Source: Bacteroidales bacterium
Lineage (GTDB): Bacteria > Bacteroidota > Bacteroidia > Bacteroidales > F082
Length of the DNA stretch: 64,000 nt
Assembly: GCA_017531225.1 (NCBI GenBank)
Contig: JAFXLL010000014.1
Coordinates: 45,390-109,389, forward strand
Direction of reading: 5' to 3'
Notes under the pieces: generated by a model
Told to the model about the DNA's origin: nothing
The model's input: only the letters and a program-made list of their open reading frames with translations
Database searches by the model: none
Part shown: one piece after another, positions 3,536-48,647 of the stretch
How the letters are laid out: each line of letters starts with the position of its first letter
Position numbering within the stretch: the first letter of the stretch is position 1
Made by a program: the position numbers and the translations under genes

Positions 3536-3536
3536 A

Positions 3537-5249: not shown

Positions 5250-5260
5250 AGCTCAAAACT

Positions 5261-8200: not shown

Positions 8201-8587
8201 GCCTCCGATTTCTTCAGTGGCATAGCCGAGTTCTCGTTTTTGACGTTTGATGCCCAAGGCAGTCACCACCACGTCATCCAACATTTGTGCGTCTTGTTCA
8301 AGGGTGACGTTGATTTTGTTGCGGCCGTTCACTGGGATCTCTTGGGGGGTAAAGCCCACAAAGCCGAATACCAGGGTTCCTTTGGGATTTACGTTAATGC
8401 TGTAGTTACCGTCAATGTCGGTGACGGTGCCACCACTGACACCTTTTACGGTGACGTTGACACCAGGGAGCCCCAATCCGTCGTCGCTGGAGATCACTTT
8501 ACCTGTAACCATGATGTTCTGGGCTTTCAAACCCAGAGGAATAAACAACATGGCAAGCAAAAAGAATAGTAAATACTTTTTATTCAT
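5261..8587 (-). CDS. SusC/RagA-family TonB-dependent outer-membrane transporter
   Basis: 1108 aa. Signal peptide, then a carboxypeptidase-regulatory-like N-domain (NIMVTGKVISSDDGLGLPGVNVTVKGVSGGTVTDIDGNYSI). Plug region (VVVTALGIKRQKRELGY, DIENIDILKGPTAAALYGSRGGNGVLLITTKKG). C-terminal beta-barrel ending in ...SLKINL. Confidence 0.93.
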   Translation of the reverse strand: MNKKYLLFFLLAMLFIPLGLKAQNIMVTGKVISSDDGLGLPGVNVTVKGVSGGTVTDIDGNYSINVNPKGTLVFGFVGFTPQEIPVNGRNKINVTLEQDAQMLDDVVVTALGIKRQKRELGYATEEIGGDLVARSGSGSVISALSGRSAGVQIINPTGVDGGSSRIVIRGNNSIFGDNQPLIVVDGVPMSNEGGITEWSGGRDWGTALNNINQEDIENIDILKGPTAAALYGSRGGNGVLLITTKKGSKQRGLGISYSVGYKVTQPYLYRSVQNKYGAGGPITFHTPTLTPIDGMVDDNGNQVYEYPGIYSVDDGPAGEPTNTTFGYYGAAQSWGPAMNGESVLWWDGVVRDYSPQPDNLSMLYKYGHTLNNNIALQNAGDFGSIRVSFTDSRTDAIIDNCNLRQTTVNVGSLLNVSDKIKVDVAFTYLDYFRLNSPEIGESQSNFNKGLLYSWPRSWKGIESASYENPDGTMNHFDGYPYQYISSSLFWSFYNNNTTLDRDKMFGSVRLFYDITPWLTASAKVALDWTADNYTTKNKPTEANGMTGGYYSKNKSTSLTRDMDFLITAHKEKMFGSKFNGRISFGGEQYYGYRDGLNTTSGTWAYANLYTIYNYSSATEINFGESKWEKQVNSLYAFLNLSYSDWLFLDVTGRNDWSSTLPINNNSYFYPSATLSFVPTSAFKDWNWGIVSFLKLRGSWAQTASDTDPYQLNYTYSTGSFGHQLSSTLPTTVPPLELKPQRQRAFEVGLDLGLGARFNMDFTYYDIYSWDQILSSPVAPSSGASNVTINTGVVTNKGIEAIMTYDITSGKDYGVQVGLNLARNKNKIVDLAGANMYMLSEIWGSNGPAIAVEEGDEYGTIYGWDYVYEYTMADGTVVGPFYDAKGNPMPLINETGTEYLKTANRVPVGNCAPVVTGGINLRASYKNWSLYALVDAKLGGQIYCASYVVGMQTGQSPATLYEREGNGLPYYENGEFLGNYGVVLPGYCINTETGEAHENENVVHYLYKYMPNYGGWGNILTTPGIVNNTWIKMREISLTYDFPRKLLDKQKFFKQISLSLVGRDLFYFYKTLPDNINPEGTLGSGNAQGLEYASYPGTRSVMLSLKINL

Positions 8588-8639
8588 AAATATATAAAAT
8601 TTATCTTTTTATTAAGATATAATCCACTTTTTTACGGGA

Positions 8640-8647
8640 CAAATATA
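8640..8647 (-). promoter_or_regulatory. Candidate Bacteroidetes -7 promoter box (TATATTTG) for the SusC operon
   Basis: Reverse complement of caaatata matches TAnnTTTG. It lies ~53 nt upstream of the SusC ATG in an AT-rich gap. Confidence 0.4.
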
Positions 8648-8718
8648 AAAAAATGATTCTTAATGATTTATTTCTCCCGAATAAAAAGTATCGCAGATTA
8701 ATCTTGACCTAAGAGGTC

Positions 8719-10251
8719 TTACCTGTATGGATTATACCTTCCGACGGTGGATACGTAAATCTCCACTCGGCGGTTTTTGGCGCGGCCAGATGCGGTGTCG
8801 TTGCCGGCCACGGGATGGTTGTAAGATTCTCCGCTGGTGGTGATGTTGTTAACGCCTTTCTTTTTCAAGTAGTCAGCTACCATTCGGGCACGATTGACGG
8901 CCACAGCCTCGTTTACCTCGGAGGTGCCGGTATTGTCGGCATGGCCGATCACAGTCACTTGACAGGAGCCAATTCCCTTGATTTCTTTAGCCAAGGCATC
9001 AAGTTGCTTGGTATCCTCCTTCGATAGCGTCTTGCTGTCCACATTGGAAAGCGTGTAGGTCTTTACACCTTTGGTGTTGGTGTTTTTCAACATGGAACTG
9101 GTGGAAACGGAATAGTTTGGCGATTCGGTATTTTTAATCAGGCCGCAACCTTGCAGCAGTGCCACCAGCATCAAAATGGTGAGACCATAGGTTATAGTGG
9201 ATTTAGGTCCTTGTAGCGGTGTGCCGCACTCTTCGCAGAAGCGGCTGCCTTCAGTGATTGATGCGCCACAATTGGGGCATACATGTTGTTTCGGTGTTTC
9301 CATAACGGGTTCCTCCTCCTCATCTATGAATATTTCTTTGTTTACGGTTTTTTTGTTTTTCTTATTGAATACAAAGAGTATCAGCGCAATAAGAATGGCT
9401 GCTATGCCGATGACGATAATGTATTTGACCACCGGACTCTTTTCATCATTATCAACCCACTCCTCATAGTCCGCTTCCTCTTCTTCGTCAAGAGTTTCAT
9501 CGTACGAGTCTTCAGTATCTTCATCGTTTTCATAGTCGTCATAGGTTGCTTCGGAAACTTCAGAATCTTCGGCAGATACTTCATCAATGTCTTCAAAACC
9601 AGTGTCTTCAAACGTCTCCCATGCTTCGTTAGATTCCGTCGCTACACTTTCTTCTTCCCAAGTTGATACCTCTTCCAATGGGGTTGTTTCGGTGGATTCG
9701 ATGTCTTGAGAATCATTGGAAGCAGTGTTGGAAGCAGAGGCCACCATTTCGCCGTCCCATGCGTAAGTATAAATGGCTTCCATGCCGTTGCAAGTGTACA
9801 CGATCGTCATTTCCGCACCGCTTGAGGGGGTCTTCGACATCAGGGTCGCAGTCTCAGGTGGGGTTACTTGGTTGCGTCCGGCAGCATCAGTCGCCGGATA
9901 GCCATTCACCGTCACTTTGGCGTATGGTGAATAGTTGAGCCGTGGTCCTTTTTCGGAAAAAACGATACGCACCGAGATATCCTCACCAGGGGCATAGCTC
10001 TTTTGGGGTTCGTTGAATGTGGCCTTGGAGGAATAGACATCCATCTGGGTGCCGTTGGTGACTTTGCGTTCGTATTGGAACACGCCTTTTTTATAGGAAC
10101 AGTCGATACGGACTTTTTGGCCGTTTTCCCAGCGTCCACCGGTGCCGTTCACCTTGGTTCCTATGAGTTTCCAACCATCGGCCCAAGCCATTTGGAGGGC
10201 GCAGCAAAGCATCAGCGCGGTTAAAAGACTTTTTTTCAGATTCAGTTTCAT
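8719..10251 (-). CDS. Mosaic envelope protein: signal peptide, private repeat module, acidic linker, TM, cytoplasmic zinc ribbon, second TM/lipobox-like segment, OmpA peptidoglycan-binding domain
   Basis: 510 aa. Zinc ribbon: CPNCGASITEGSRFCEECG. OmpA motif: VTVIGHADNTGTSEVNEAVAVNRARMVADYLKKKG...GRAKNRRVEIYV. D/E-rich stretch of ~95 aa. Two hydrophobic segments (YIIVIGIAAILIALILFVF; ITYGLTILMLVALLQGCG). Confidence 0.8.
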   Translation of the reverse strand: MKLNLKKSLLTALMLCCALQMAWADGWKLIGTKVNGTGGRWENGQKVRIDCSYKKGVFQYERKVTNGTQMDVYSSKATFNEPQKSYAPGEDISVRIVFSEKGPRLNYSPYAKVTVNGYPATDAAGRNQVTPPETATLMSKTPSSGAEMTIVYTCNGMEAIYTYAWDGEMVASASNTASNDSQDIESTETTPLEEVSTWEEESVATESNEAWETFEDTGFEDIDEVSAEDSEVSEATYDDYENDEDTEDSYDETLDEEEEADYEEWVDNDEKSPVVKYIIVIGIAAILIALILFVFNKKNKKTVNKEIFIDEEEEPVMETPKQHVCPNCGASITEGSRFCEECGTPLQGPKSTITYGLTILMLVALLQGCGLIKNTESPNYSVSTSSMLKNTNTKGVKTYTLSNVDSKTLSKEDTKQLDALAKEIKGIGSCQVTVIGHADNTGTSEVNEAVAVNRARMVADYLKKKGVNNITTSGESYNHPVAGNDTASGRAKNRRVEIYVSTVGRYNPYR

Positions 10252-10268
10252 GGTATATGCTTTCGTTT

Positions 10269-10742
10269 TTAATTTCTTTTGACGCGGGGTTTGGTTTCAT
10301 CCCATGAGCCGTCGGCAGCGGTGCTGTAGCCGTCGAAGGCGATGGTGTCAGGGGCGAGGAAGCCTTGTTCGTCGAAATAAAAGAGCTTGTATTCGGGACG
10401 GGGACCCAGGACCCAGACACGGCAGCGCAGCAGGCCGTCGTCGTAGCGACGATAGACAATGTGGCCGTCAGGAAGTGTATCGAAGCCGCCGTTGGAAAGG
10501 ACGTAGGTATTGGGTGTGTAATCTTCCAAGGCGGCAAGGCTGTCGGGATTTCGGATTTTGAGGCCCCTTGTAACGAAGGCGCCGCCGTCCATGCCCGTGC
10601 GGGCGGTTTCGTCCTCGTAGGCCTCGTCAGGCGTGAGCCAGGGGTCGTTATCGACAGGCGGCTTGGGATGCCAAAGGCCACAAGCCGTGAGCAAGCCAAG
10701 ACCGATGATCGGCAGCATAATGGATATTTTGAGTTTGTTCAT
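10269..10742 (-). CDS. Small lipoprotein, function unknown (GC-rich gene)
   Basis: 157 aa with lipobox LLTAC. It has a 3-nt gap to the upstream gene and a 17-nt gap to the downstream gene. GC is clearly higher than in the flanking genes. The C-terminal YKLFYFDEQGFLAPDTIAFDGYSTAADGSW resembles cell-wall/choline-binding-type aromatic repeats. Confidence 0.7.
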   Translation of the reverse strand: MNKLKISIMLPIIGLGLLTACGLWHPKPPVDNDPWLTPDEAYEDETARTGMDGGAFVTRGLKIRNPDSLAALEDYTPNTYVLSNGGFDTLPDGHIVYRRYDDGLLRCRVWVLGPRPEYKLFYFDEQGFLAPDTIAFDGYSTAADGSWDETKPRVKRN

Positions 10743-10745
10743 TAT

Positions 10746-13700
10746 TTATTCCTCCCATGCATAATTATAAGTGGTGCTTATTTTAGACATACTTCCATAA
10801 ACCTTGATGTATTCTGTTATGAAAAAGCCCACCGCGCCGGGTGTTCCTGGTTTAGATGGGGCGGAACCTTTGGCTACACCCACAACCTTTTTGTTGCTAT
10901 AGGAAGGTTTATCATCCCAATCACCTTCGTATTCGACACAGCCGTCCCATTGGCCTGTTGAAAACACAATGTCACCGTAAGACATGCCTTCTTTACCGCC
11001 TTTGATCTTTGGTTTCTCATTGGTCACCTTCAGGGTGATTTCCTCTCCGGGCATATACACGGATTTGGGCTTTTCGAAGTTGATTTCGCGGTCGCTGATC
11101 ATACCGTCTCTCTCAACATGGGCTGTGTAGTGTCCATTGCTACCCTGAATAGTGATGCCTTTAGCCGAGCCGGTGATCATACCTTGTTCGGTAGAAACTC
11201 CAGTATGGATCAGTTTCCAGTGGCCGCCGGTGACGGGTTTTTCCTTGACGGGCTTGGCTTTTTTGCCGCCGTCCACCCATTCGTAATGATAGGTAATTTT
11301 CAACTCAACGGTGTTGCCGGTGCTGCTGCGCACTGTTTCAATGATTAGGAAGGTGTTTCCAGTCCAGCCATATCCCTTGGTGGGAGCGATCCTGGTTCTA
11401 CAATCTTCACCAGCCGTACCAGTCGTGCCTGGTCCTGTATAGGTAGCACCCTCCTGTTCCCACCCAAAGGAACCTTGATAGCTCGGAACGTCGGTACAGC
11501 CGTAATCAAAGTTAGCCACTGAATGCCCGTGAATTACATTTTTAGCATTTGGTTCATCGGTAGGGGTAATCTTTGTGGCACCATATTGGATTTTTAAACG
11601 GATATTTTCCCCTGGGGTATAAATCTTTTTTGGTCGCTCCGTCTTTATTGTACGCTCGTGGGTGACTTTTATAAGAGGTTTCTTCCAATATTTTTCATAC
11701 CCGCACTCACCATGTACGAGATATACACCATCTTTCCCTTCTATGTAGTTGTTGTAAGTCAGGTTTTTATCGACCCCTTGGGCTGATATTTTACTGTCAT
11801 CCACTTCGGTTTTCACGAGCTGCCAATATCCGCCTTCAGGAACGTTTTCTGTTTCCAATTCTGGTTCCGGTTCCTCTTCGCCTACCCATTCGTAATTATA
11901 CACGAAGGTGACGGTGGCCATCAGGTCGGAGCCTTGTCGTTCTTTGATGGAGTAGGTTTGCGTCAGCGTGAACGATTTGGGGCCGTTCTTTTCCGGATGA
12001 CGGGCTTCGAAGGTAGTGGTACTGCCGCGGGGCCAGTTCACCTTGCCTACCGATGAGCGGCCGTTGTCTATCTTGTCTTTTTTCGACTGCGCGCAGGCGG
12101 CTTGGTCGGAGCTGGTGTTTTTCGCCTCAAATACAAACGGATCACTGACTTTCGTCAGGTAGGGATCATCGGCGATTTCCCAATGGGCTTTGTATTGCTG
12201 TGTGGGAATCCAGAACTTTGGAGGCTCCGTGTAAGTGAGTGTTCCTTCGATGAAAATGTCTTGCACATAGACGCGTCCGTTTTCCTTCGTTTTTTCCTCG
12301 GTGGCGCCCATGCCGGTGAATTCAAGGCTGCGGCCCGTTTTGGCTTCCTGCAGATCGATGCTGCGGTAGTCGCTGCTCACCTCGTCGTCGTTGCTTTGGT
12401 CAACATCGATGGAAGTGTTTTTCATCGTCATCCTACTGCTCACTTGTTTCCAGTAGTTGGTTTCGGGTTCCTTGGTCTGCACCACTTCTTCTTCGGGCTG
12501 GTCGCCTTTGGCGCCCCATTGTGCAGGTTCACCTATGGGCGACACGTAGGTGGTTTGTTCATCGGGCTTGTAGTACCATTGCAGTGAAAGCGTGAAGCTA
12601 TTGCCCTTTTTGCTGCAATCAGGTATTGTCCATGTTGCCTTTTTGCCGAAATTCTTGGGTTCGATTTCGCGGGTGTATTCTTCTCCGTTTTTGTCCTTAT
12701 AGGTCACCACAACGCCGGTGATGAGTTTTTCCTTGGTTAGCGCACGGGCTGGTTTGGGCACGATAAAGGTGATTTTGTCGTCTTTCACTTTGCGGATTTC
12801 TGGGGCCTCAGGTTTAAATAGGGCTACCGCGTAGTAATCGCACAAGGGGCCCTTGGATTGTGACGTAGTGACGACACCTAAATAATATCCGTTGTTTTTT
12901 TTCTTATTCAAAACCAAGTTCCCATTAACGTCTTTTCCGTTATAATCAGTCTTGGGGTTTCCCTCATAATAGAGAGTAGGTTTTACATTGGTCAAATGAT
13001 GCATTATGACATACTCTTGAAACTTGTAATCGGACATATAGAACGACACGTAGGGATTGTCACCTTTATGTTTTTTGTCCTTCGGCTTGCACACGACAAA
13101 TATGTGTGCAATACTGGAAGGGAGCCCTTTTCCTATCTCCAAATGGAAAGTGTTTACCGTGTAGTCCTGGGGTTTCGACAACTTGTCTATTTTTTCAATC
13201 GGGTTGGTAGGTTTTAAAAGTATATTTTTTGTAGCCACGTCCTCAGGGCATTTATAGTGTGTTTGACTATCTATGATTACCGGCAAGTATTTTTCTCCAA
13301 AATACCTCCATCCTTTGTTGAATTGCTCGCCATCAATACCCAAGGAGAACTTTATCCAGCCGATCCATCCACCGTCTGTAGAGTATTCAGCTTCTTTGCC
13401 AAGCTTGGACATGTGAGGCCCATGCAGAGAATAGCTATCCATGAAAGGCTTCATGGTCACAGACTCTTTCCCAACACCTTCCCGAATACCTTCTATGGCA
13501 TCACCATAAGTGTATTCTTCAGGCAAAGGGGAGAATATAGATCGTTCCTTTATCCTTTCAGGTCTAAGTTTCGTGATATGTGTATTGAAAGGGTAGCCGA
13601 ATATATGCTTTTCGTCACGGTCGGTTATCAATTTGCCTTCGGCATTCGTGGAAGTCGGGTCTTGTTCCGTAATGATGCCGTCTTTATACCACTTTTTGGC

Positions 13701-15014
13701 AGCATCCCTTTCCAGGACGGTGGCCGTTGCTTCGGCTGCTGCCGAACCCATTTTGGTAAGGGTGTAATAACTTTGCTGTCTGACGTGGAACAATTCATGG
13801 ACAAGGGTAACTTGAGTGTGGTCAGAGCTCTCTTTGTCTATTTTTGCTTTGGAATAATTGAGGACAACACAATGTCCATCAACCCAAAGCGATGCTGCAG
13901 CACCGTATGTCTCCGATTTTACTGAAGGTTCTTCCAACAAAAAGAAGGGTATTTCCTTATTCAGTTTGTGAAGTCCAATACTGTCCAAATATCGGTTTGC
14001 CCGAATGATTTGGTTTTTGATGGTCTCTATGCTTTTCGGGAGTTGGGCCGCAGGATCGGCGTTCAATTCTTTCATGACAGCATCGTCTTTAATCAATTTT
14101 TTTAAGATGCTATTATAGCCGATTTTCTCCTTGATTGCCCGAACCTGTTTTCCTGGAAACCAGTCTTCCCAAAAATAGGGTTTGATATGCTCCTTCTCAA
14201 GTTCTTTTTGGACACGGTCTTCAAAATCTTTTTTGGCCTGCTTTTCCAACTTGGCATATTGCTTCTGATACTTTTCTCTCCGTTTTGCAAATTCAGTATA
14301 GCCATCAGGATTCTCTGTATCCCGAAACCGGAAATGCAACACAAAATTTCCACTTTTATCGGAAACAGGAAGCACAAAAGCCGTATTATCAAAATAATAA
14401 TAATCAATAATAGTGTGAAATTCTGAAGCAACTATCTTGGCCAAAAACTTCCAATAGGGCTTCACTTGATGATTAATCAAGTATAACGGATCTCCCACAC
14501 AATTGATTACGATTGAAACAAAAGAGTTCTGATTGCTCTTGAAAGAGAGTTTTCCGTCGGCTAACTGTGTGTTGTATCGGTAAGCTCCCATTTTCTTTCC
14601 GTTTTTGGCAACACGGTACACGCATATATTCTCTTGCAGGTTTTCAGGAATGCCCATCTTGTTCAGGTCTATCACCACATCGTAGTCGCCAGGGAGAAAT
14701 TCGCCTGGTTTCATGCCTGCATCGAGGTCAAAGACCATAAAAGGTGTTAGATCTTCTGTTTCCAACAGTTCTACTACCTTGTCATAAGTCTTGTCGTCTA
14801 CGGGTGTCAGCTTGAACTCCCGGTTCTTATCCAAGGCGTTCTTGGGCGCGCTGATGGTGATGCCTTCGACAGGCTCTATCTTGAAAGGCTTGCTGTGCCC
14901 GACAACGATTTGTTCTTTCTTGCTGTTGGATGAGGTTTCGCTCAGAATCAAATAGCCTGCGGCTCCGAGGATGACGGTCGCGATGAGGATCCATTTGAGG
15001 AGGTTCTTGTTCAT
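10746..15014 (-). CDS. Giant N-terminally membrane-anchored protein with HELFHxRQQ zincin-like motif and three C-terminal private repeat modules
   Basis: ORF-track ORF is 10746..15062. I prefer the internal start MNKNLLKWILIATVILGAAGYLILSE (ATG at 15014), which matches the paralog N-terminus and removes the overlap with the upstream gene. HELFH lies at 13785-13799, with a conserved Glu 18 residues after the second His. Confidence 0.8.
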   Translation of the reverse strand: MNKNLLKWILIATVILGAAGYLILSETSSNSKKEQIVVGHSKPFKIEPVEGITISAPKNALDKNREFKLTPVDDKTYDKVVELLETEDLTPFMVFDLDAGMKPGEFLPGDYDVVIDLNKMGIPENLQENICVYRVAKNGKKMGAYRYNTQLADGKLSFKSNQNSFVSIVINCVGDPLYLINHQVKPYWKFLAKIVASEFHTIIDYYYFDNTAFVLPVSDKSGNFVLHFRFRDTENPDGYTEFAKRREKYQKQYAKLEKQAKKDFEDRVQKELEKEHIKPYFWEDWFPGKQVRAIKEKIGYNSILKKLIKDDAVMKELNADPAAQLPKSIETIKNQIIRANRYLDSIGLHKLNKEIPFFLLEEPSVKSETYGAAASLWVDGHCVVLNYSKAKIDKESSDHTQVTLVHELFHVRQQSYYTLTKMGSAAAEATATVLERDAAKKWYKDGIITEQDPTSTNAEGKLITDRDEKHIFGYPFNTHITKLRPERIKERSIFSPLPEEYTYGDAIEGIREGVGKESVTMKPFMDSYSLHGPHMSKLGKEAEYSTDGGWIGWIKFSLGIDGEQFNKGWRYFGEKYLPVIIDSQTHYKCPEDVATKNILLKPTNPIEKIDKLSKPQDYTVNTFHLEIGKGLPSSIAHIFVVCKPKDKKHKGDNPYVSFYMSDYKFQEYVIMHHLTNVKPTLYYEGNPKTDYNGKDVNGNLVLNKKKNNGYYLGVVTTSQSKGPLCDYYAVALFKPEAPEIRKVKDDKITFIVPKPARALTKEKLITGVVVTYKDKNGEEYTREIEPKNFGKKATWTIPDCSKKGNSFTLSLQWYYKPDEQTTYVSPIGEPAQWGAKGDQPEEEVVQTKEPETNYWKQVSSRMTMKNTSIDVDQSNDDEVSSDYRSIDLQEAKTGRSLEFTGMGATEEKTKENGRVYVQDIFIEGTLTYTEPPKFWIPTQQYKAHWEIADDPYLTKVSDPFVFEAKNTSSDQAACAQSKKDKIDNGRSSVGKVNWPRGSTTTFEARHPEKNGPKSFTLTQTYSIKERQGSDLMATVTFVYNYEWVGEEEPEPELETENVPEGGYWQLVKTEVDDSKISAQGVDKNLTYNNYIEGKDGVYLVHGECGYEKYWKKPLIKVTHERTIKTERPKKIYTPGENIRLKIQYGATKITPTDEPNAKNVIHGHSVANFDYGCTDVPSYQGSFGWEQEGATYTGPGTTGTAGEDCRTRIAPTKGYGWTGNTFLIIETVRSSTGNTVELKITYHYEWVDGGKKAKPVKEKPVTGGHWKLIHTGVSTEQGMITGSAKGITIQGSNGHYTAHVERDGMISDREINFEKPKSVYMPGEEITLKVTNEKPKIKGGKEGMSYGDIVFSTGQWDGCVEYEGDWDDKPSYSNKKVVGVAKGSAPSKPGTPGAVGFFITEYIKVYGSMSKISTTYNYAWEE

Positions 15015-15034
15015 GATGTTTATCGGTTGAGTTG

Positions 15035-18000
15035 TTACTTTTCTGTTTTGGGAGACACCCATTCGTAGGTATAAACTTTTTGGAAATAACAGTTTTCTGA
15101 GATGATGACTCGCTGTATGATTTTGAAACCATCTGGATAGAATAGGTCATGATCGGGAATGGAGAAAGCGCTTCCTTCATGACTCCTCTTGCGTTCATCA
15201 AATTCATAATGATTGAGGGCCCTTAACCGTTTTGGGAATTCAGTTTCAAAATCCAACTTTTCTAGACTAAAGCTTCCCGTTCCCCATAGATACGGCGTTG
15301 AATTGTCGCCCACACCCCTGTTTTTTGTAGTTATGGTCGCTTCGCTTTCTGTCATGGAGGGCCCTGGTTCATTTTCCTTATAGTATTGTTTTGGAGTCTC
15401 GAAGGTGTAGTCGCGGTCAACGGTATAAATCACCCCTCTGCCCACTTCACGATTGATACCGTCACTCCCTTTTTCGGTAATTCCCCCCACGATGTCCATG
15501 TGCAGATGACACTGTCCTGCACCACCACTAATGACATGGTTGGACCCGTTTTTATCCTTATAGGTCGTATGTGAGTCATCCGCTTCGGTCTTGACCAGTT
15601 GCCAATACCCGCCTTCTGGAGCGGTTTCCTCTTCCTTCTCTTCTTTTTCAGGCTCGCCCTCTACCCATTCATAGTAATAGGTGATGTAAGCGACAGCGTT
15701 AAGGCCGGAGCCTCCGCTGATGGTGTATTTCTGCTCGATGGTGAACTCTTTGGGGTCGTTTTTCCCTGGTTTGTTGGTCTTGTAGACGGTCTTCACCTGA
15801 TGGAGCCACTTGGCATCAGCGGTCTTGGAGTTCATTTCCGTCACCTTGTCTTTGCCCTTTTGGCAAGCTTTGGGTTCGGAGGTGGTGTTTTCCACGGAGA
15901 AGGTGAAGGGGTGATTCATCTTGTCAACGAAGGGATCTTGCTCGGTGTACCACTCGCAAGTATAGTTGGTGTTGGCGGGCCATTGCTTGGGCGGCTCGGT
16001 GAAGCTGACGTAGCCGTCTAAGCAAGTCTCCGGTTTGAAGAGGGTCTTACCGTTCTCTTTGACTTTCCTGGAGGCCATGCCCGTGAATTCAGCTTCGTTT
16101 GCACCGCTCGCGAACTTCATCGTGATGCCGCGCACATCATGAGTGGCGAAACCATCGCTGTCGAGTTCGCTTTCATCTATTTTCTGCCCTTCCACCTTGC
16201 CGGTGGCACTCACCTGCTTCCAGTAGCCTTCCTTCTCGTCAATCTTGACGGGTTCTTCTTTCTTTTTCTCCTCGACTTTCATCGCACCATGCACGACAGG
16301 CTTGGATTCGGGGGAAATGTAGGTGGTCTCCGCATCTGGCTTGAAGTACCAGTGTAGGGTTATTTTAAAGTCCTTTTCTTGGATTCCCGGCAGATTGTTG
16401 ATGCTGTATTTCTTGCCGAAATACTTGGGTTCAATGTCATAGGTCTTGGTGCTCCCGTCGGCAAACTTGAGGGTCGCCACAGCTCCGCTCAGCAATTTTT
16501 CCTTCATGATTTTGGTTGGAGCCTTGGGCATGATGAAACCGAGTGCGTCTTTTTTGGCTGTGAGTTTTTTGGGCGCATCGGGTGCGTAGAGGGCAACGAT
16601 GAAATAGTCGTTGTTCTCTCCCTGTGACATGGTCGTTGCTATGGCTGCAAGTGGGAATGTGCTGTGTTTCGTACAATATAGGTTTGGCTTCAGCGGAACC
16701 AAGTGGTCACTTGCATCTACCGTTCCCGAAAAATCATAGGGGTAAAGATAAAACTTCAAATAGGGATTCCAAGCCTGTTGGCCTTTTCTGTTTGAAGGGC
16801 TTACAAACACATTGGCGGGCTCGGTGTGGAAACCTTTGCCGGGTGTCCTTTCCGATTTCAAGTCTATTCTAAAGGTGTTGATAGTATAGTCTTTCGGCTT
16901 CTCGAGTTTTTCCAATTTCGAGATGGGATGGTCTTTGGAGAGCTCTATGATGGTTGTGGCCGCGTCCTTCGGAGTGGTTCCCGCCATTTGGCTATTGTAA
17001 ATCCTGTTCAGGTTGGTTTCTCCAAAATAGAACCAACCGTCGTCAAATTGTTGGTCATCGATGTCAAGAGACTTTTTTATCCAACCTTTCCAACCTGAAG
17101 TGTGGGGTCCGAACAGAGAATAATTGGCGGCAAAGAAGTACATGGTCATGAATTCCTTGTTGGACCGTTTCCGGATGCCCTCAATGGCATAAGACAAGGA
17201 ATAAGCGGCATCGACAGCGTCGCCTGACGGAACGAGCGACATGGCTTTTTCCAGTGGGTATGCAAAGACATAATTCTGGTCACGGTCAGTGCATATTTTC
17301 CTTGCGCCTTGCACAGTGGAGGCATCTGTCTTGAAGACTTTGTTTTTGTACCACTGAATGGCGGCATCGTCTTCCAATGTCGCAGCCGTCGATTCCGCTG
17401 GTGCGGAATTCATCGCGACAAGCGCATAATAACTTTGCTGCCGGGCATGAAAAAGCTCATGAACGATGGTACACTGGAACTTTTCCCATAGTTCGTCGGT
17501 TTGACTGTGTTTATAATTCAGCAAAAGGAAGGCATTCCCGCAGAAATAATACTTTTGCGCCACCCCACAGATTTTGTCGCCTATAACGGAACCATTCACT
17601 AAGTAGATTGGCATTTCGTAGTTAAACGGATGAAGCCCTATGCTGTTCAGGTATTCATTAGCCCTGATAACCTGTTCCTTAATTTTCTGGATACTTGGCG
17701 GGAGGCTGCCTGCTGGGTCAGTATTCAAACGGGTCAAAACCGTGTCTTTTTTGATTAAGTTCTCGAGGATTTCTTCCTTGGAGATGCTTTCCCTGATGGC
17801 TTCGACTTGTTTTTTGGAGAATAGTTTTTGCCAGAAGGAGTATCCCTTTTGCTGATCCTTCACCTCCTGATCCACTTTTGCCTCATATTTGGCATTCGCC
17901 AGTTTTTCCAACTCCTCCAAACGATCAAAAGCCGCTTTCTCGTTGTCTATGAAAGCTTGGTAGCCATCGGGGCGTTCGGTGTCGGAAAAACGGAAATGAA

Positions 18001-18688
18001 GGACAAAATCACCACTGGTGTCTTGGATTGGAACAGCCAAAGAAGTGGAGTTACCGGAAAAGAACTTTCTTATGGAAGTGGTGCCATTAGAGGCTGGTGC
18101 ATACTCAAAAATGCGTCTCCCAACTTGAATAGCCATGGTAATTCCGCCCAAGGTCGCAAGTGCTCCGATGATAATGGAATTTTGATTGCTCTTGAATGAG
18201 AGTTTTCCATGGTCAAGATGCGTTTTGTATCGGAGAAATTCAAATGATTTGTCAGAGTCCACGGCACGATACACGACAAATTGGTCTTGGAGCTCTCTGG
18301 GTATGCCCATCTTATCCAAGTCCCACACGACATCGACATCTCCCGGCAAATGCTCATCGGATTGTAGTCCAGCATCGAATTCGAAGACAAAAAGCGGCTT
18401 GATGTACGTGTTGTCGTAAGCCTTTGTCACCTTTTCGTAGGTTTTGTCATCCACCGCCGTGAGCTTAAACTCCCTGTCCTTATCCAAGGCGTTCTTGGGC
18501 GCACTGATGGTGATGCCTTCAACGGGCACAATCTTGAAAGGCTTGCTGTGGCCTACTACGATTTGCTCTTTTTTGCCTTTAGGGCGCGAACTCTTCTTGC
18601 CTGAGGGCATTTCGCTAAGAATCAAATAAGCGGCGGCACCGAGGATGACAACCGCGATGAGAATCCATTTGAGGAGATTTCGGTTCAT
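15035..18688 (-). CDS. Giant N-terminally membrane-anchored protein with HELFHxRQQ zincin-like motif and two C-terminal private repeat modules (paralog of 10746..15014)
   Basis: 1217 aa. N-terminus is MNRNLLKWILIAVVILGAAAYLILSE. HELFH lies at 17447-17461. It is collinear with its paralog through the N-terminal ~700 aa. Confidence 0.8.
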   Translation of the reverse strand: MNRNLLKWILIAVVILGAAAYLILSEMPSGKKSSRPKGKKEQIVVGHSKPFKIVPVEGITISAPKNALDKDREFKLTAVDDKTYEKVTKAYDNTYIKPLFVFEFDAGLQSDEHLPGDVDVVWDLDKMGIPRELQDQFVVYRAVDSDKSFEFLRYKTHLDHGKLSFKSNQNSIIIGALATLGGITMAIQVGRRIFEYAPASNGTTSIRKFFSGNSTSLAVPIQDTSGDFVLHFRFSDTERPDGYQAFIDNEKAAFDRLEELEKLANAKYEAKVDQEVKDQQKGYSFWQKLFSKKQVEAIRESISKEEILENLIKKDTVLTRLNTDPAGSLPPSIQKIKEQVIRANEYLNSIGLHPFNYEMPIYLVNGSVIGDKICGVAQKYYFCGNAFLLLNYKHSQTDELWEKFQCTIVHELFHARQQSYYALVAMNSAPAESTAATLEDDAAIQWYKNKVFKTDASTVQGARKICTDRDQNYVFAYPLEKAMSLVPSGDAVDAAYSLSYAIEGIRKRSNKEFMTMYFFAANYSLFGPHTSGWKGWIKKSLDIDDQQFDDGWFYFGETNLNRIYNSQMAGTTPKDAATTIIELSKDHPISKLEKLEKPKDYTINTFRIDLKSERTPGKGFHTEPANVFVSPSNRKGQQAWNPYLKFYLYPYDFSGTVDASDHLVPLKPNLYCTKHSTFPLAAIATTMSQGENNDYFIVALYAPDAPKKLTAKKDALGFIMPKAPTKIMKEKLLSGAVATLKFADGSTKTYDIEPKYFGKKYSINNLPGIQEKDFKITLHWYFKPDAETTYISPESKPVVHGAMKVEEKKKEEPVKIDEKEGYWKQVSATGKVEGQKIDESELDSDGFATHDVRGITMKFASGANEAEFTGMASRKVKENGKTLFKPETCLDGYVSFTEPPKQWPANTNYTCEWYTEQDPFVDKMNHPFTFSVENTTSEPKACQKGKDKVTEMNSKTADAKWLHQVKTVYKTNKPGKNDPKEFTIEQKYTISGGSGLNAVAYITYYYEWVEGEPEKEEKEEETAPEGGYWQLVKTEADDSHTTYKDKNGSNHVISGGAGQCHLHMDIVGGITEKGSDGINREVGRGVIYTVDRDYTFETPKQYYKENEPGPSMTESEATITTKNRGVGDNSTPYLWGTGSFSLEKLDFETEFPKRLRALNHYEFDERKRSHEGSAFSIPDHDLFYPDGFKIIQRVIISENCYFQKVYTYEWVSPKTEK

Positions 18689-18695
18689 AAGACCA

Positions 18696-19037
18696 TTATT
18701 TCGTTAACAACGCAATTAAAATAAAGATGGCAAGAATGATGGCAAAAGCGATCAACTTGCCCTTGCTGATGAATGTGATTTGCGGTTTTCCGATTTCAAT
18801 TTTTGGTTTGAATTGCTTCCAATCAATGCCATTGGTTGGTTTTTCATCGGCAGCATCAACAAACTCATGCAGGGTTTGCTTTTTCGGTTGTTTTGGTTGC
18901 TGAGGTTGTTGAGGTTGTTTGTACTCTTGTTGGGGTTTAGGTTGTTGTGTTGGTACAGCAACTTGGGCTCCACAATTGGTGCAAAAACGTACGCCCTCTT
19001 GTAACGGGGCTCCGCATTGATTACAAAACTTAGGCAT
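18696..19037 (-). CDS. Small zinc-ribbon protein with P/Q-rich linker and C-terminal transmembrane anchor
   Basis: I use the internal start MPKFCNQCGAPLQEGVRFCTNCGAQV (ATG at 19037). The 216-aa track ORF would extend through the promoter region. The C-terminal LIAFAIILAIFILIALL is a TM segment. There is a 7-nt gap to the next gene. Confidence 0.7.
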   Translation of the reverse strand: MPKFCNQCGAPLQEGVRFCTNCGAQVAVPTQQPKPQQEYKQPQQPQQPKQPKKQTLHEFVDAADEKPTNGIDWKQFKPKIEIGKPQITFISKGKLIAFAIILAIFILIALLTK

Positions 19038-19051
19038 GGCAAATAAATTTT

Positions 19052-19059
19052 TAGTTTTG
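19052..19059 (+). promoter_or_regulatory. Candidate -7 box (TAGTTTTG) for the Kelch/AraC regulator gene
   Basis: Matches TAnnTTTG on the plus strand, back-to-back with the minus-strand box. It lies ~140 nt upstream of the ATG at 19200. Confidence 0.3.
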
Positions 19060-19061
19060 TG

Positions 19062-19069
19062 CAAATTTA
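19062..19069 (-). promoter_or_regulatory. Candidate -7 box (TAAATTTG) for the five-gene operon
   Basis: Reverse complement of caaattta matches TAnnTTTG, ~25 nt upstream of the ATG at 19037. Confidence 0.45.
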
Positions 19070-19100
19070 AGGATGCCGCCGCTAACTTGTTATTTTCCAA

Positions 19101-19155
19101 AGGTGACGATTTCAATAAATTTAGGTGACAATTTCTAAAAAAAGGTGACAATTTC
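19101..19155. promoter_or_regulatory. Three direct repeats AGGTGAC(G/A)ATTTC; candidate operator array
   Basis: Copies at 19101-19113, 19123-19135 and 19143-19155 (start spacing 22 and 20 nt). They lie between the divergent operon and the AraC-type regulator gene. A fourth GTGACA half-site sits at 19195-19200. Confidence 0.55.
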
Positions 19156-19199
19156 CCCAAAAAGCAATTACGGAGGGTTAAAACACCTATCTTTGTGAC

Positions 19200-20843
19200 A
19201 TGAAACGACACTTGCTTTCTTTTGTTTGGCTCCTGTTGCTGTGTTCCTGCCAACAGCAACCCGAAACGCTTTTTGTGGGTGACATTCCCTTTGTTCCAAT
19301 GGAAACGGAATCGTTGCCTGAAATGAACACGCCTCGCGCGGGCCATGCCTTAGTGTGGGCCGATGACCATATCTTAGTCGTGGGAGGACATACCACAGGA
19401 TTTGTGCCCACCCCAACGGCAGAGTATTATAAAAACGGAAAATGGCATCAGATACTCACGCTCTATCTGCACGACACCCCCTTTGCCCTTGTGCTGAAAG
19501 ACGGTGATGTATTGATAGGCGGTGGTTATGAAAAGGATTTCGGGGTAGGGCAGACTTGGGGAGTGGAATGTTATCATCCCGCCACACACAGCTTTGCGCC
19601 AAAATCCATCATGGACCGAAAACGGGCACATGCCAGTGCTTTGGAGTTGGAGCATGGCGAGATTGTGATCAGCGGAAACTGGTACACCACCGATGTCACC
19701 GAAATCTATATTGATTCCGTGGAAGCCCAATGGATTGACACGGCAGCGGACAATCGCAGCTACCCCTTTCTCCTACCTGTCACCAACGACAACGTATGGA
19801 TTATTGGTGGCACTTACGGGAGTTATGGAATGAGCACCCAAAATGTTGTTGACCAGACCAAAGGAGAGCCTTTTTCGGTGGATTTGTTGGCAGCATGGCT
19901 TCCCCAAACTCCAACGGACCGCAACGTACAGGCCGATGCCTATCGCTTAGCGGAACACACCTTCCTGATACCCGCTATAAACGCCGAAAGACAATGGGCT
20001 CCCATGCTTGTTGACAGCACAGGCTTCTCGCTGTTGTCCATGGAACAAGCGTTGCCAAAAGAGGGACCCTGGGGTTCCATCCAATATACGGGCTCGTTTT
20101 GGACGGATCCCGAAACAGGAACCGCATGGCTCATGGGTTTGGATGGGCAGCGTGTTTATTTGGCTGAAATCGCCTATCAACCAGCGCTTCAAGGCGGAAA
20201 GGCAAAGCTTTCCATGCATTACACACGGCCTTTGGAAGACCTACCAAGCGATCCCTATGAATTGCTGCTTCCCGACGGTAGTTTTGTGATCGTTGGTGGC
20301 AGGAATTGCTCCAATTTCATAAGCAGTGCTACGGTGTATGCCTTTTATCCCAATACACAACCCCAACAAAACAGGGTTTTGTTTGCCATGATCATAGGCT
20401 TGATGGTCTTAATCGGTTTGTGTTTGGCCATTGTAGTTAAAAAGAGAAAACATCAGAAAGAGACAACTCCCAAGGTCAAAGAGGAAGATCTGCCGATACA
20501 GGAAAAGACAGACTTGGGAGAAAAACTCAAGGCATTGATGGAAGAAAAGCAGCTCTTCCGGAACAAGGATTTGCGAATTGCCGACGTGGCCGCTGCCCTG
20601 GGAACCAACATCACCTACCTTTCGGCTTGCCTGAACGGTGAGTTGAACACGACCTTCCCCGCCTTTGTGACCGGTTACCGTATCCGTTATGCCCAAGAAT
20701 TGATGCGCAAAGTGCCCACGATGCGTCTTTCGCAGGTGGCAAAGGAGGCGGGTTTCACCAATGAAAAGACTTTTTTACGCACCTTCAAGACCTCGTGTGG
20801 AGTTACCCCTTCGGAATGGAAGCAGGAACACGGCGGTGATTAG
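19200..20843 (+). CDS. Transmembrane one-component regulator: lipoprotein signal, Kelch-like beta-propeller, TM helix, C-terminal AraC-type HTH
   Basis: 547 aa with lipobox LLLLCSC. Repeated hhh(V/I)GG motifs (HILVVGGH, VLIGGGY, IVISGNWY, VWIIGGTY, FVIVGGRN). TM segment VLFAMIIGLMVLIGLCLAIVV. AraC HTH: IADVAAALGTNITYLSACL...AGFTNEKTFLRTFKTSCGVTPSEW. Confidence 0.8.
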   Translation: MKRHLLSFVWLLLLCSCQQQPETLFVGDIPFVPMETESLPEMNTPRAGHALVWADDHILVVGGHTTGFVPTPTAEYYKNGKWHQILTLYLHDTPFALVLKDGDVLIGGGYEKDFGVGQTWGVECYHPATHSFAPKSIMDRKRAHASALELEHGEIVISGNWYTTDVTEIYIDSVEAQWIDTAADNRSYPFLLPVTNDNVWIIGGTYGSYGMSTQNVVDQTKGEPFSVDLLAAWLPQTPTDRNVQADAYRLAEHTFLIPAINAERQWAPMLVDSTGFSLLSMEQALPKEGPWGSIQYTGSFWTDPETGTAWLMGLDGQRVYLAEIAYQPALQGGKAKLSMHYTRPLEDLPSDPYELLLPDGSFVIVGGRNCSNFISSATVYAFYPNTQPQQNRVLFAMIIGLMVLIGLCLAIVVKKRKHQKETTPKVKEEDLPIQEKTDLGEKLKALMEEKQLFRNKDLRIADVAAALGTNITYLSACLNGELNTTFPAFVTGYRIRYAQELMRKVPTMRLSQVAKEAGFTNEKTFLRTFKTSCGVTPSEWKQEHGGD

Positions 20844-20909
20844 TCAGGTTCTATTTTCACCTGATATAAAAGTGCAATGATGATTAAGTATCTTTTCATG
20901 GCTACAAAG

Positions 20910-21653
20910 TTATTGTTTATTTGGTGCCCAAGCTACAAAAGGCGGGTTAGGATAGTCTTTTTTGTCGTATTCCAAAGGTTTCCCATCGCTGATTTTTAGA
21001 ACTTTTCCGCCGGCGGCGGTAAGTATGGCATCAGCGGCGGCGGTGTCCCATTCTTTGGTCTTACTGTAGCAGACGTATACATCGGCGGTGCCTTCAGCTA
21101 AACGGGCAAATTTCAAGCTGCTGCCCTGGGTGTCGATCACCAAATCGGGATGTTCTGGCCGCAACACCTTATCAATATATTCATCTACTTCGGGAGTTCT
21201 ATGGGAACGACTGACTAAAACGGTGAAAGGTGAGAGTTGAGAGTTGAAAGGTGAGAGGTTTGCTTGTAATAATTTGCCGTTTTCTGCTGCCCATAACTTA
21301 TCCAGCACTGGTGCATAGATGACGCCGATAACAGGTCGTTTGTTCTCAATCAAGGCGATATTTACTGTGAATTCATCATTGCGTTTCACGAATTCGGCGG
21401 TGCCATCCAAGGGATCCACCAACCAATAACGCCCAAACTGGGAACGATCAGACGGCAAGTCCTCCTCGCTGACAAAAGGGATCCCCGTCGGCTTCAAACA
21501 CTCCTTAATTATATTACTCGCCCGAAGGTCAGCTTGGGTCACTGGCGACTGGTCATCTTTCGTGTAAACCTCAAAAGGATGGGCATAAATTTCCATAATG
21601 GCTCGACCCGCCTTGCGAGCCGCTTCAATAGCCGTTAAAACCAATTTGTTCAT
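20910..21653 (-). CDS. cysQ: Inositol-monophosphatase-family protein, probably 3'(2'),5'-bisphosphate nucleotidase
   Basis: I use the internal start MNKLVLTAIEAARKAG (ATG at 21653); the longer track ORF would overlap topA. Motifs present: FVSEE, WLVDPLDGT, WDTAAADAIL. Confidence 0.72.
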   Translation of the reverse strand: MNKLVLTAIEAARKAGRAIMEIYAHPFEVYTKDDQSPVTQADLRASNIIKECLKPTGIPFVSEEDLPSDRSQFGRYWLVDPLDGTAEFVKRNDEFTVNIALIENKRPVIGVIYAPVLDKLWAAENGKLLQANLSPFNSQLSPFTVLVSRSHRTPEVDEYIDKVLRPEHPDLVIDTQGSSLKFARLAEGTADVYVCYSKTKEWDTAAADAILTAAGGKVLKISDGKPLEYDKKDYPNPPFVAWAPNKQ

Positions 21654-21706
21654 AACGCAAAAATAAAAAAATTCAAAAAAATTCACGCCATACGATTTTA
21701 TTCTAC

Positions 21707-21714
21707 TAATTTTG
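21707..21714 (+). promoter_or_regulatory. Candidate -7 box (TAATTTTG) for topA
   Basis: Matches TAnnTTTG, 49 nt upstream of the topA ATG. Confidence 0.4.
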
Positions 21715-21762
21715 CGGCCGAATTTGGGAGGAAAGCCCTCCTTGTTGAAATGAAGAAACGAT

Positions 21763-24125: not shown

Positions 24126-25160
24126 ATGGAGAAAAAAGACCTTCTGAAAGACGTTGTCGAACACATCGACATTAAGAAGTACGACTCAACCGAATTGATC
24201 AACGCTATGCGCAAGATGTCGTTCACCTCACGTGATACGGCCCGCGCCGCTGACATCCTCTGCCAGATGATTGCCGAGAAGGATTGCACCAACATCCTCA
24301 CCATCGCTGGTTCAACTTCAGCTGCCGGCTGCATGCAGGTGTACGTGGAGATGGTCAAGAACAAGATGGTTGACGCCGTGGTCAGCACCGGTGCCAGCAT
24401 CATCGACATGGACCTCTTCGAAGCCCTCGGTTACAAGCATTACATTGGCACCAAGGAAAACGTCATCCCCGACACCAAGCTGCGTGAACTCTACATCGAC
24501 CGTATCTATGATACCTTCATTGATGAGGAAGAGCTGCAGGCCTGCGACCAAGCTACTTGCGACGTGGCCGACACCCTCGAGTGCCGTCCTTACAGCAGCC
24601 GTGAGTTCCTCTATGAAGTGGGCAAATGGCTGGCCAACGGTCACGGTGTGAAGAAAGAAAGCCTTATCCAGACCTGCTACGAATGCGGCGTGCCGATTTT
24701 CTGCCCCGCCTTCAGCGACAGCTCAGCTGGTTTCGGTATCGGTAAGCACCAGTGGCTCCGCAAGAAAGCTGGTAAGCCTTACGTCAGCATCGATTCAGTG
24801 GCCGACTTCCTCGAACTCACTGAGATCAAGATGAACAGCCCCGAGAGCGGCCTCTTCATGGTCGGTGGCGGTACTCCTAAGAACTTCGCTCAGGACACCG
24901 TGGTTTGCGCTGAGATCCTCGGTCACGAGGTGCCCATGCACAAATATGCCATCCAGATCACTGTGGCCGACGTACGTGACGGCGCTTGCTCATCCTCAAC
25001 ACTGCTTGAAGCTGGTAGCTGGGGTAAGGTGAGCGAAGAGCTGCAACAGATGGTCTATGCCGAAGGTACTACCGTCATCCCCGCTATCGTCAGCTATGCC
25101 TACCACAACGCTCCTTGGCAAAAGCGTGAGTACAAGAACTGGCAGAAGCTCTACAAATAA
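24126..25160 (+). CDS. Deoxyhypusine synthase-like family protein
   Basis: 344 aa. The layout (ILTIAGSTSAAGCM..., VDAVVSTGASIIDMDLFEALG, MVGGGTPKNFAQD) matches DHS-like proteins as I recall them. Its stop overlaps the next start (TAATG). Confidence 0.75.
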   Translation: MEKKDLLKDVVEHIDIKKYDSTELINAMRKMSFTSRDTARAADILCQMIAEKDCTNILTIAGSTSAAGCMQVYVEMVKNKMVDAVVSTGASIIDMDLFEALGYKHYIGTKENVIPDTKLRELYIDRIYDTFIDEEELQACDQATCDVADTLECRPYSSREFLYEVGKWLANGHGVKKESLIQTCYECGVPIFCPAFSDSSAGFGIGKHQWLRKKAGKPYVSIDSVADFLELTEIKMNSPESGLFMVGGGTPKNFAQDTVVCAEILGHEVPMHKYAIQITVADVRDGACSSSTLLEAGSWGKVSEELQQMVYAEGTTVIPAIVSYAYHNAPWQKREYKNWQKLYK

Positions 25161-48504: not shown

Positions 48505-48508
48505 AAAT

Positions 48509-48568
48509 AAGGACAAAAAATCTTGTTGAGAATCAATATTTCGTTGGTTCTCAACAAGAAACGTCCTT
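48509..48568 (+). terminator. Long perfect hairpin downstream of the 767-aa gene (terminator or operon boundary element)
   Basis: TCTTGTTGAGAA (48521-32) pairs with TTCTCAACAAGA (48548-59). Outer AAGGAC pairs with GTCCTT. No clear T-tract follows. Confidence 0.5.
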
Positions 48569-48618
48569 GACATTTCGATAAAAACAAGGACAATTTTCGG
48601 TTGTTCGACCGAACCCCC

Positions 48619-48647
48619 TTGACAAACGGATTTTCTGTCTAATTTTG
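48619..48647 (+). promoter_or_regulatory. Promoter cassette TTGACA-N15-TAATTTTG (copy 2)
   Basis: CCCTTGACAAacggattttctgtCTAATTTTGC, ending 17 nt before the ATG at 48665. Confidence 0.55.

Follow-up and report, generated by a model that had tools for sequence, protein, structure and literature searches.

A stretch of 64,000 nucleotides from a Bacteroidales bacterium (contig JAFXLL010000014.1, positions 45,390 to 109,389; hereafter the window) carries, at window positions 8719–20843, a five-gene envelope locus and a divergently transcribed regulator gene. The two largest products of this locus belong to a family of giant proteins with a predicted zinc peptidase domain of the gluzincin type. 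The five open reading frames (ORFs) all lie on the minus strand. Gene 1 (18696..19037) encodes a 113-residue protein with a cytoplasmic zinc ribbon at residues 4–25, a P/Q-rich linker and a C-terminal transmembrane (TM) segment at residues 93–111. It is followed by gene 2 (15035..18688), encoding a membrane-anchored gluzincin-like giant of 1217 residues, gene 3 (10746..15014), encoding a 1422-residue giant that is a paralogue of the gene 2 product, gene 4 (10269..10742), encoding a 157-residue lipoprotein with the lipobox LLTAC, and gene 5 (8719..10251), whose 510-residue product combines a module related to those of the giants with a TM segment, a zinc ribbon and an OmpA domain. The regulator gene (19200..20843, plus strand) encodes a Kelch-TM-AraC protein of 547 residues. 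An initial annotation of this DNA, made from the sequence alone, had placed the five genes at these coordinates with intergenic gaps of 7, 20, 3 and 17 nucleotides from gene 1 to gene 5. The ORFs confirm these values, and the domain layouts that it gave for each gene agree with Pfam matches, hydrophobicity and motif positions.

Two start sites required attention. Gene 3 has an alternative upstream ATG at 15062; the orthologues all begin MN(K/R)N(L/I)LKW, and thus the start at 15014 is preferred. The longest ORF containing gene 1 spans 18696–19346 (216 residues) and overlaps the start of the divergent regulator gene. The NCBI annotation gives a gene 1 product of 134 residues, and the 113-residue form, beginning MPKFC, occurs on most contigs (46; protein collection). 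The public annotation of the locus products, in a Bacteroidales metagenome-assembled genome, is limited to hypothetical, ‘zinc ribbon domain-containing’, ‘OmpA family’ and ‘helix-turn-helix domain-containing’ entries.

The initial annotation had read the five genes as a single operon, and indeed an equivalent gene set is found in at least nine further Bacteroidales loci (loci carrying relatives of these genes are given L numbers below). We consider the five genes to form one co-inherited cluster resembling a transcription unit, whose sequence suggests that they are co-transcribed. The cysQ/topA genes lie on the far flank of the regulator in L003, L029, L030 and L031, where the flanks were examined, just as in the window. 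Because this adjacency is kept across divergent genomes, and because the GC content is unremarkable, we rejected an origin from a mobile element or prophage. The locus is best described as a real, conserved and regulated envelope system of uncultured rumen and gut Bacteroidales, a clade-specific operon that is most likely switched by its own regulator. All Bacteroidales carriers are uncultured, and isolates occur solely among the Firmicute relatives (Oribacterium sp. C9 and NK2B42, and Lachnospiraceae JC7).

The two giants share 42% sequence identity, and each begins with a hydrophobic anchor at residues 5–23. Both contain the motif HELFH(A/V)RQQ, at residue 410 in gene 2 (HELFH at window 17447–17461, minus strand) and at residue 406 in gene 3 (window 13785–13799, minus strand). 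A word-based search of 5.8 billion proteins returned just 83 relatives of the giants, all of them unnamed, and a HMMER profile search that covered all 1.84 billion representatives returned 400 clusters, 296 of these at E <= 1e-30. Members of the family are found in Bacteroidota, Firmicutes and Acidobacteriota, and their conserved core corresponds to profile positions ~2–800. HExxH is present in 119 of 120 full-length representatives, and residues H410, E411, H414 and E432 of gene 2 are invariant in an alignment of 81 sequences. E432 lies 18 residues past H414 and falls in the next predicted helix (helices 200–220 and 227–247 of the model), a position from which it would serve as the third zinc ligand.

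AlphaFold2, given the 81-sequence alignment, modeled residues 31–1217 of gene 2 with a mean predicted local distance difference test (pLDDT) score of 83, and residues 202–575 modeled alone reached 92. In the model an N-terminal beta domain (residues ~46–180) and a hydrophobic segment (172–190) precede a helical HExxH domain (202–575; window 16964–18085, minus strand) that includes Glu432. Several immunoglobulin (Ig)-like beta-sandwiches (~579–810) then lead to two larger beta modules, module A (820–1010) and module 2 (1026–1212). Gene 3 carries its own C-terminal modules at residues 850–1047, 1055–1250 and 1258–1422. A Foldseek search of the PDB with the whole 1187-residue model gave only FN3/Ig noise. 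With the catalytic domain alone, the best PDB and viral matches were all zincin or gluzincin peptidases, comprising ACE of family M2, the M4 peptidases PlM4P and vibriolysin, families M61, M1 and M3, and lethal factor of M34. The scores of these matches are weak, with a probability of 0.95–0.99 for the top three, E >= 0.046, a template-modeling (TM) score <= 0.43 and a root-mean-square deviation of 6–9 Å. The zincin-like signature that the initial annotation had seen in both giants thus holds up, with an invariant motif and a predicted fold that resembles gluzincins.

Sequence searches gave no such match. Neither giant matched a PDB chain, either as a single sequence or as the 81-sequence profile, and neither matched a Pfam family at E <= 0.01. 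The family DUF4157 (PF13699), which the initial annotation had suggested, was absent from genes 2 and 3 at that threshold and from 17 family members at E <= 0.1. Pfam searches at E <= 5 with the modules, the N-terminal beta domain, the Ig-like region and gene 4 also gave no match. The only NCBIfam match of the giants is that of gene 3 to MXAN_6640 (NF045524), at 18.8 bits and thus below the cut-off of 140, and DUF5700 (PF18958) reached 22.4 bits against a cut-off of 25 in one distant Clostridiales homologue alone. These two families, annotated only as ‘putative zinc peptidases’, share with the giants a weak local similarity around the HExxH region; the giants, however, stay below both curated cut-offs. 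We found nothing specific in the literature on DUF5700 or on combinations of zinc ribbon, FHA and metallopeptidase domains. Like the known gluzincins (MEROPS clan MA(E): thermolysin and vibriolysin of M4, ACE of M2, M1, M3, M61 and anthrax lethal factor of M34), the giants have an HExxH helix followed by a glutamate 18 residues on in the next helix, and only gluzincin families are found among the best structural matches of their predicted beta/helical catalytic domain. In contrast to the known families, the giants have no sequence match to solved structures, and they set the catalytic domain in a unique context, behind a membrane anchor and an N-terminal beta domain and ahead of Ig-like spacers and modules that can be swapped. 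Motif and model together suggest a catalytic domain with the signature and fold class of gluzincins that falls outside every described family, and we regard zinc peptidase chemistry as the likely function of this domain.

The compartment in which this domain resides depends on the hydrophobic segment that follows the N-terminal beta domain (residues 172–190 of gene 2; window 18119–18175). Of 204 family members, 109 have a strong segment, 31, among them gene 3, have a weak one or none, and two have it doubled. The charges around it show no positive-inside bias, and in the AlphaFold2 model its first half is not helical but forms the final strand of the beta domain. Furthermore, several members of the family begin with a lipoprotein signal instead of the anchor, and some of them have no such segment either; three members have a dockerin upstream of the body; and in gene 5 a giant-related module lies behind a cleavable signal peptide. 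Together these features indicate that the body of the giants is extracytoplasmic. Ig-like sandwiches arranged in tandem are characteristic of proteins outside the cytoplasm. We thus judge a membrane-spanning segment unlikely, while keeping a re-entrant anchor, a buried strand and a real span as three alternatives.

Both small partner proteins with zinc ribbons are well supported by Pfam. Zn_Ribbon_1 (PF13240), with a CxxC...CxxC motif in each case, matches gene 1 at E = 7e-9 (35.6 bits) and gene 5 at E = 1e-8 (34.9 bits), against a cut-off of 25 bits. In 40 of 120 representatives, and likewise in L001/L006, L004, L014, L015 and L021, the giant itself has one or two zinc ribbons at its N-terminus, and these fusions carry a gene 1-like ribbon, linker and TM segment ahead of the giant. 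In the window and in L008, L011, L012, L013 and L017, one to three separate zinc-ribbon/TM genes precede the giant. In Acidobacteria the position of the zinc ribbon is taken by an FHA domain (E = 2e-16). These FHA-giants, found in L022–L027 (Holophagaceae, Vicinamibacteria, Thermoanaerobaculales), are ORFs of ~1050 residues (for example L026 9599–12757), and in the acidobacterial neighborhoods they are solo genes with no conserved partners. Such fusions are good evidence for a joint function of gene 1 and the two giants, and a physical association of gene 1 with the giants seems to us rather likely. This operon is not alone in having the system, whose core, an arrangement of zinc ribbon or FHA domain, TM segment and extracytoplasmic gluzincin body, spans three phyla.

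The gene 5 product begins with a signal peptide (AWA|D), followed by the giant-related module (residues 25–170), an acidic linker (171–272) with up to 13 D/E per 20 residues, a TM segment (277–295), the cytoplasmic zinc ribbon (325–346), a second hydrophobic segment (353–371; window 9139–9195) and an OmpA domain (404–494) that matches PF00691 at E = 6e-14 (52.6 bits; cut-off 27.2). The second hydrophobic segment ends with a vestigial lipobox-like LLQGC, and in L005, L009 and L031 the counterpart of gene 5 is split, with OmpA encoded on its own. Gene 5 thus appears to have arisen by the joining of a module-TM-zinc-ribbon gene to a gene for an OmpA lipoprotein. Wall-binding domains recur on the zinc-ribbon/TM partners in other lineages, where the OmpA domain of gene 5 has its equivalents in three SLH domains in Clostridiales L012 and a choline-binding repeat in Oribacterium L015. 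The C-terminal 37 residues of gene 4 resemble this choline-binding repeat of the Oribacterium zinc-ribbon/TM protein (pairwise E = 1e-7), and we tentatively suggest that the gene 4 C-terminus is a wall-binding repeat of the choline-binding type. In L001, PBP4-type and VanY-type peptidases flank the giants. The wall-binding partners, the PBP4/VanY neighbors and the gene 4 repeat all point to the interface between membrane and wall, and a role for the system at this interface is a possibility that we hold with somewhat less than even confidence. Some loci contain further membrane proteins, namely, in L008 and L011, a two-TM protein whose gene separates the zinc-ribbon gene from that of the giant and, in the Cryptobacteroides-like L008, a DUF2207 membrane protein (12952–14601) directly downstream of the giant, which may be lineage-specific accessory components.

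The locus proteins diverge at very different rates. In L029, L030 and L031 identity to the window is 84–92% for TopA, 55–72% for the regulator, 91–94% for gene 4 and 30–47% for the giants. In L003, from the same species, the values are 97% for TopA, 91% for the regulator, 97% for gene 2 and 98% for gene 4. Gene 4 is the most conserved protein of the locus, at 83–98% across loci in which the giants are at 30–47%; its homologues form only 11 clusters, nine of them at >=77% identity, and include no distant relatives. The first ~1050 residues of gene 3 in L003 are mostly 94–100% identical to the window protein, with short patches at 50–88%, and past ~1050 the C-terminal modules are replaced (14–50% identity). 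Modules like those of gene 3 also occur, at 97–99% identity, on cores that are just 26–50% identical (P0046, P0057, P0010 and P0024), and conversely P0023 has a core 100% identical to that of gene 3 with different modules. The modules are thus cassettes that have been swapped at the conserved junction motifs Y.YEW ... GG.W.LV. A hidden Markov model of the module matched genes 2 and 3 at E = 1e-11 to 1e-46, values that are partly circular since the training set included their own modules. Gene 5, which was outside the training set, was matched at E = 5.5e-5 over half of the model and has in addition the closing YTYAW motif. The initial annotation had described a private repeat module shared by three of the five proteins; the sharing is strong between genes 2 and 3 and modest in gene 5, but the modules are shuffled cassettes and not a fixed, private feature.

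This exchange is reminiscent of polymorphic toxins (contact-dependent inhibition proteins, Rhs), in which a conserved N-terminal body likewise carries C-terminal cassettes exchanged at conserved junctions. In contrast to those systems, the giants have no recognizable toxin domain or secretion-system signal, and the downstream gene 4 is nearly invariant and does not co-vary with the C-termini as an immunity gene would. The same two observations, the missing toxin domain and the failure of the lipoprotein gene to co-vary, leave the ‘effector-presenting’ complex that had been put forward initially without support. Por_Secre_tail, the type IX sorting domain, was also not found in genes 2–5 by Pfam, and is present in other proteins of the window.

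We also analyzed the divergent regulator and the control region between it and gene 1. The regulator has a lipoprotein-like signal, a putative periplasmic Kelch-type beta-propeller (residues ~40–385), a TM segment (395–413) and a cytoplasmic AraC-type DNA-binding domain (464–542). The latter is above the Pfam cut-offs for both HTH_18 (55.7 bits, cut-off 33.6) and HTH_AraC (35.4, cut-off 26.6). One Kelch blade is above its cut-off (Kelch_6, 33.6 against 25.3) and one is below (Kelch_1, 18.4 against 20.1). Searches of Pfam and NCBIfam found no HisKA, HATPase or Response_reg domain in the 547 residues; without a kinase or receiver domain the regulator is not a hybrid two-component system, and we classify it as a ToxR-like one-component membrane regulator. 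Like the Bacteroides hybrid two-component systems, it would unite a periplasmic propeller sensor and a cytoplasmic AraC output in a single membrane protein and act on the neighboring locus; it differs from them in lacking histidine kinase, ATPase and receiver and in the predicted Kelch type of its propeller. Homologues of the regulator are numerous (>858). It lies divergent to the homologous operon in all nine loci with enough flanking sequence (L003, L004, L005, L008, L009, L011, L029, L030 and L031), across which its identity to the window protein ranges from 36% to 91%.

The control region contains three direct repeats of (A/G)AAT(T/C)GTCACC with a period of 20–22 nucleotides (19101..19161, minus strand), a putative operator that lies upstream of the promoter and beside the regulator gene. 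These are the three repeats reported initially, and they are real: the degenerate motif AWWTYGTCACC has three matches in the 64 kb, all in the control region, against 0.5 expected, and none of 100 shuffles reached three. In an alignment of seven loci (the window and six related loci) the three TTGTCACC cores and their 20–22-nucleotide spacing are invariant, as are the TA..TTTG columns, whereas the remainder of the intergenic region diverges. The TTGTCACC repeats and TA..TTTG are kept even though the first downstream gene varies and may be gene 1, gene 5, a giant or an OmpA gene, and more distant loci have a related AATTGTTAGTT element. The TAnnTTTG box seen initially upstream of gene 1 is present as TAAATTTG (19062..19069, minus strand), a -7 promoter box of the Bacteroidota type 25 nucleotides before the gene 1 ATG. 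Its columns are conserved, but the motif as such is not enriched in the window, with 52 occurrences against 39 expected and two further minus-strand matches inside gene 3. AraC-family activators typically bind promoter-adjacent direct-repeat half-sites about two helical turns apart. The constancy of the regulator in nine loci and of the repeats in seven is in line with the dedicated regulator proposed at first, and the regulator very probably acts on the operon by binding the three TTGTCACC repeats.

Based on these features we infer a model that covers complex formation, catalytic activity, substrate, co-transcription and regulator–operator binding. The Kelch-type propeller of the regulator would sense a periplasmic signal, and the membrane-tethered AraC domain would induce the operon by binding the three TTGTCACC repeats, which are helically phased and lie directly upstream of the promoter. 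Genes 2 and 3 would supply the catalytic components, each with an inner-membrane anchor and a very long periplasmic body, and these would be coupled in the membrane to zinc-ribbon proteins that face the cytoplasm, namely gene 1 and the middle part of gene 5. The OmpA domain of gene 5 would fasten the assembly to peptidoglycan, with the nearly invariant gene 4 lipoprotein as a fixed partner. The complex might then cleave envelope or wall-associated proteins or peptides where membrane and cell wall meet, with the C-terminal modules setting target or location and the zinc ribbons giving cytoplasmic control or positioning. The package as a whole, a regulated envelope complex built on membrane-anchored gluzincin-like peptidases at the membrane–wall interface, is to our mind an evenly balanced proposition.

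Several points weigh against this reading. The structural matches of the catalytic domain are weak (E >= 0.05, TM score 0.35–0.43), and the model supports its fold class alone. To our knowledge no known peptidoglycan peptidase is a gluzincin, and a wall-peptide substrate would be unprecedented. If the hydrophobic segment of the giants does span the membrane, the catalytic domain would be cytoplasmic, and what we take as the anchor in genes 2 and 3 could be a signal peptide that is removed by cleavage (AAA, residues 18–20). The module match in gene 5 is modest (E = 5.5e-5). Finally, the fast divergence of the giants (30–47% where TopA is at 84–92%) and the shuffling of their modules fit a role in conflict better than they fit wall housekeeping.

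Such a conflict or defense role would make the giants periplasmic surveillance proteases whose swappable modules recognize foreign proteins on their way in, for example bacteriocins, type VI effectors or the ejection or tail proteins of phages, with the zinc ribbons passing on or receiving a signal across the membrane. The near-identical core with replaced C-terminal modules in L003, the 97–99% identical modules on 26–50% identical cores and the 100% identical core with other modules speak for this, as do giants that diverge far faster than TopA, the regulator or gene 4, tandem paralogues, and a gene number and order that differ among loci. However, PADLOC was negative save for a generic OmpA/MotB similarity, the locus keeps a fixed chromosomal position with apparent vertical inheritance and neither a defense island nor a mobile element, each module type is highly conserved rather than hypervariable, and the modules are missing from the Firmicute and acidobacterial members. 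We regard a conflict role as unlikely. Its most elaborate form, a polymorphic proteolytic surveillance system that spans the periplasm, captures foreign proteins with exchangeable cassettes, is positioned by OmpA, wired through zinc ribbon or FHA domains and induced by the Kelch-AraC protein, strikes us as somewhat more doubtful still. A quite different possibility places only the N-terminal beta domain outside, between two membrane spans, and the HExxH domain in the cytoplasm, where it would act on a cytoplasmic target with the zinc ribbon or FHA domain as a signal-transducing protease of FtsH/BlaR1-like topology. A hydrophobic segment of ~19 residues does follow the beta domain in roughly half of the members, this beta domain is the best-conserved part across phyla, as a sensor would be, and cytoplasmic adaptor domains suggest signaling. 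This topology is nevertheless improbable. With 31 of 204 members, gene 3 included, showing a weak segment or none and two showing it doubled, a true span would move homologous domains from one compartment to the other. It is also at odds with the lack of a positive-inside bias, the strand rather than helix in the AlphaFold2 model, the members with a lipoprotein signal and no segment, the gene 5 module behind a signal peptide, and the Ig-like sandwiches.

Two other explanations concern what the giants would be for. They could be nutrient-acquisition peptidases that digest dietary or host proteins or glycoproteins and are tied to the adjacent SusC/SusD/PNGase-like locus. We consider this quite improbable: the SusC/SusD pair and the PNGase F-like type IX cargo gene do lie directly downstream, and some Firmicute members carry dockerins and are hence cellulosome-associated, but the SusC adjacency is seen only in same-species L003 and not in L005, L009 or L031, SusC has its own TAnnTTTG box and is separated from gene 5 by a 131-nucleotide gap, and inner-membrane anchoring, OmpA and zinc-ribbon partners are foreign to polysaccharide utilization loci. 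Alternatively the giants might be non-catalytic tethers or adhesins, spacers that join membrane, wall and outer membrane, with HExxH as a relic. Their long beta-sandwich array and the presence of wall-binding partners are in keeping with this, but HExxH and the downstream glutamate are invariant across three phyla, which argues for retained catalysis or metal binding, and a pure tether seems to us the least probable of these explanations.

Returning to the membrane-anchored peptidase complex that we favor, the characterized protein closest to it in layout is Staphylococcus aureus TcaA, which has a predicted intracellular zinc finger, one TM segment and a mostly extracellular remainder and has been studied in cell-wall remodeling (PMC10328498; PMC10611510). 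The giant system shares with TcaA a small cytoplasmic zinc ribbon, one TM segment, a large outside domain and a link to the cell wall, a likeness by layout alone. We know of no HExxH peptidase motif in TcaA. In agreement with the initial annotation, no described system was matched by the locus in Pfam, NCBIfam, PADLOC, PDB sequences or the literature searched. The sole PADLOC match was a weak one of the gene 5 OmpA domain to ZorB/MotB models (E = 8e-7), with none for the other five proteins; a PHROGs search of the locus proteins gave nothing beyond zinc-ribbon, OmpA and AraC similarities, and an Rfam search of window 8000–22000 gave no match. The recognizable domains all come from known superfamilies, and we claim no new chemistry or mechanism. 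What is undescribed in the libraries and literature searched is the giant family itself, its obligate pairing with zinc ribbon or FHA domains, the wall-binding partners, the cassettes, and the Kelch-AraC regulator with its operator.

If the favored reading is true, the giants would constitute a phylum-spanning, unstudied family of envelope zinc peptidases tied to cytoplasmic zinc-ribbon/FHA modules and to wall-binding partners. The N-terminal zinc ribbon-TM arrangement recurs throughout the giant family and its neighbors, and we found no characterized function for it beyond TcaA. On the favored reading, the shuffled cassettes would also suggest that specificity is under selection in these abundant Bacteroidales of rumen and gut. 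Likewise, if the regulatory link is true, the Kelch-TM-AraC protein and the three TTGTCACC repeats would form a minimal, kinase-less alternative to the hybrid two-component sensors of Bacteroides.

The surroundings of the locus contain several other gene groups. Downstream of gene 5, window 8587 to 995 on the minus strand (995–8587) holds a SusC/SusD pair followed by an 846-residue protein with a PNGase F C-terminal domain and a type IX sorting tail, a candidate N-glycan utilization locus with its own TATATTTG box at 8640–8647. We rejected membership of the five genes in this SusC/SusD locus, the adjacency not being conserved. In two related loci a small LPD13 gene (PF18825, large polyvalent-protein-associated), which is not present in the window, lies beside the regulator or the operon (L029 11624–12181, L030 4336–4944). 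On the other side, after topA, deoxyhypusine-synthase-like and arginase/agmatinase-family genes (window 24126–26335), found likewise in L029, L030 and L031, are probably a polyamine pair of the homospermidine type. Farther along, at window 46201–57283 on the plus strand, lies a cluster of genes for large type IX cargo proteins, namely GLUG-motif proteins of 767 and 1430 residues and a BspA-type leucine-rich-repeat protein of 952 residues.

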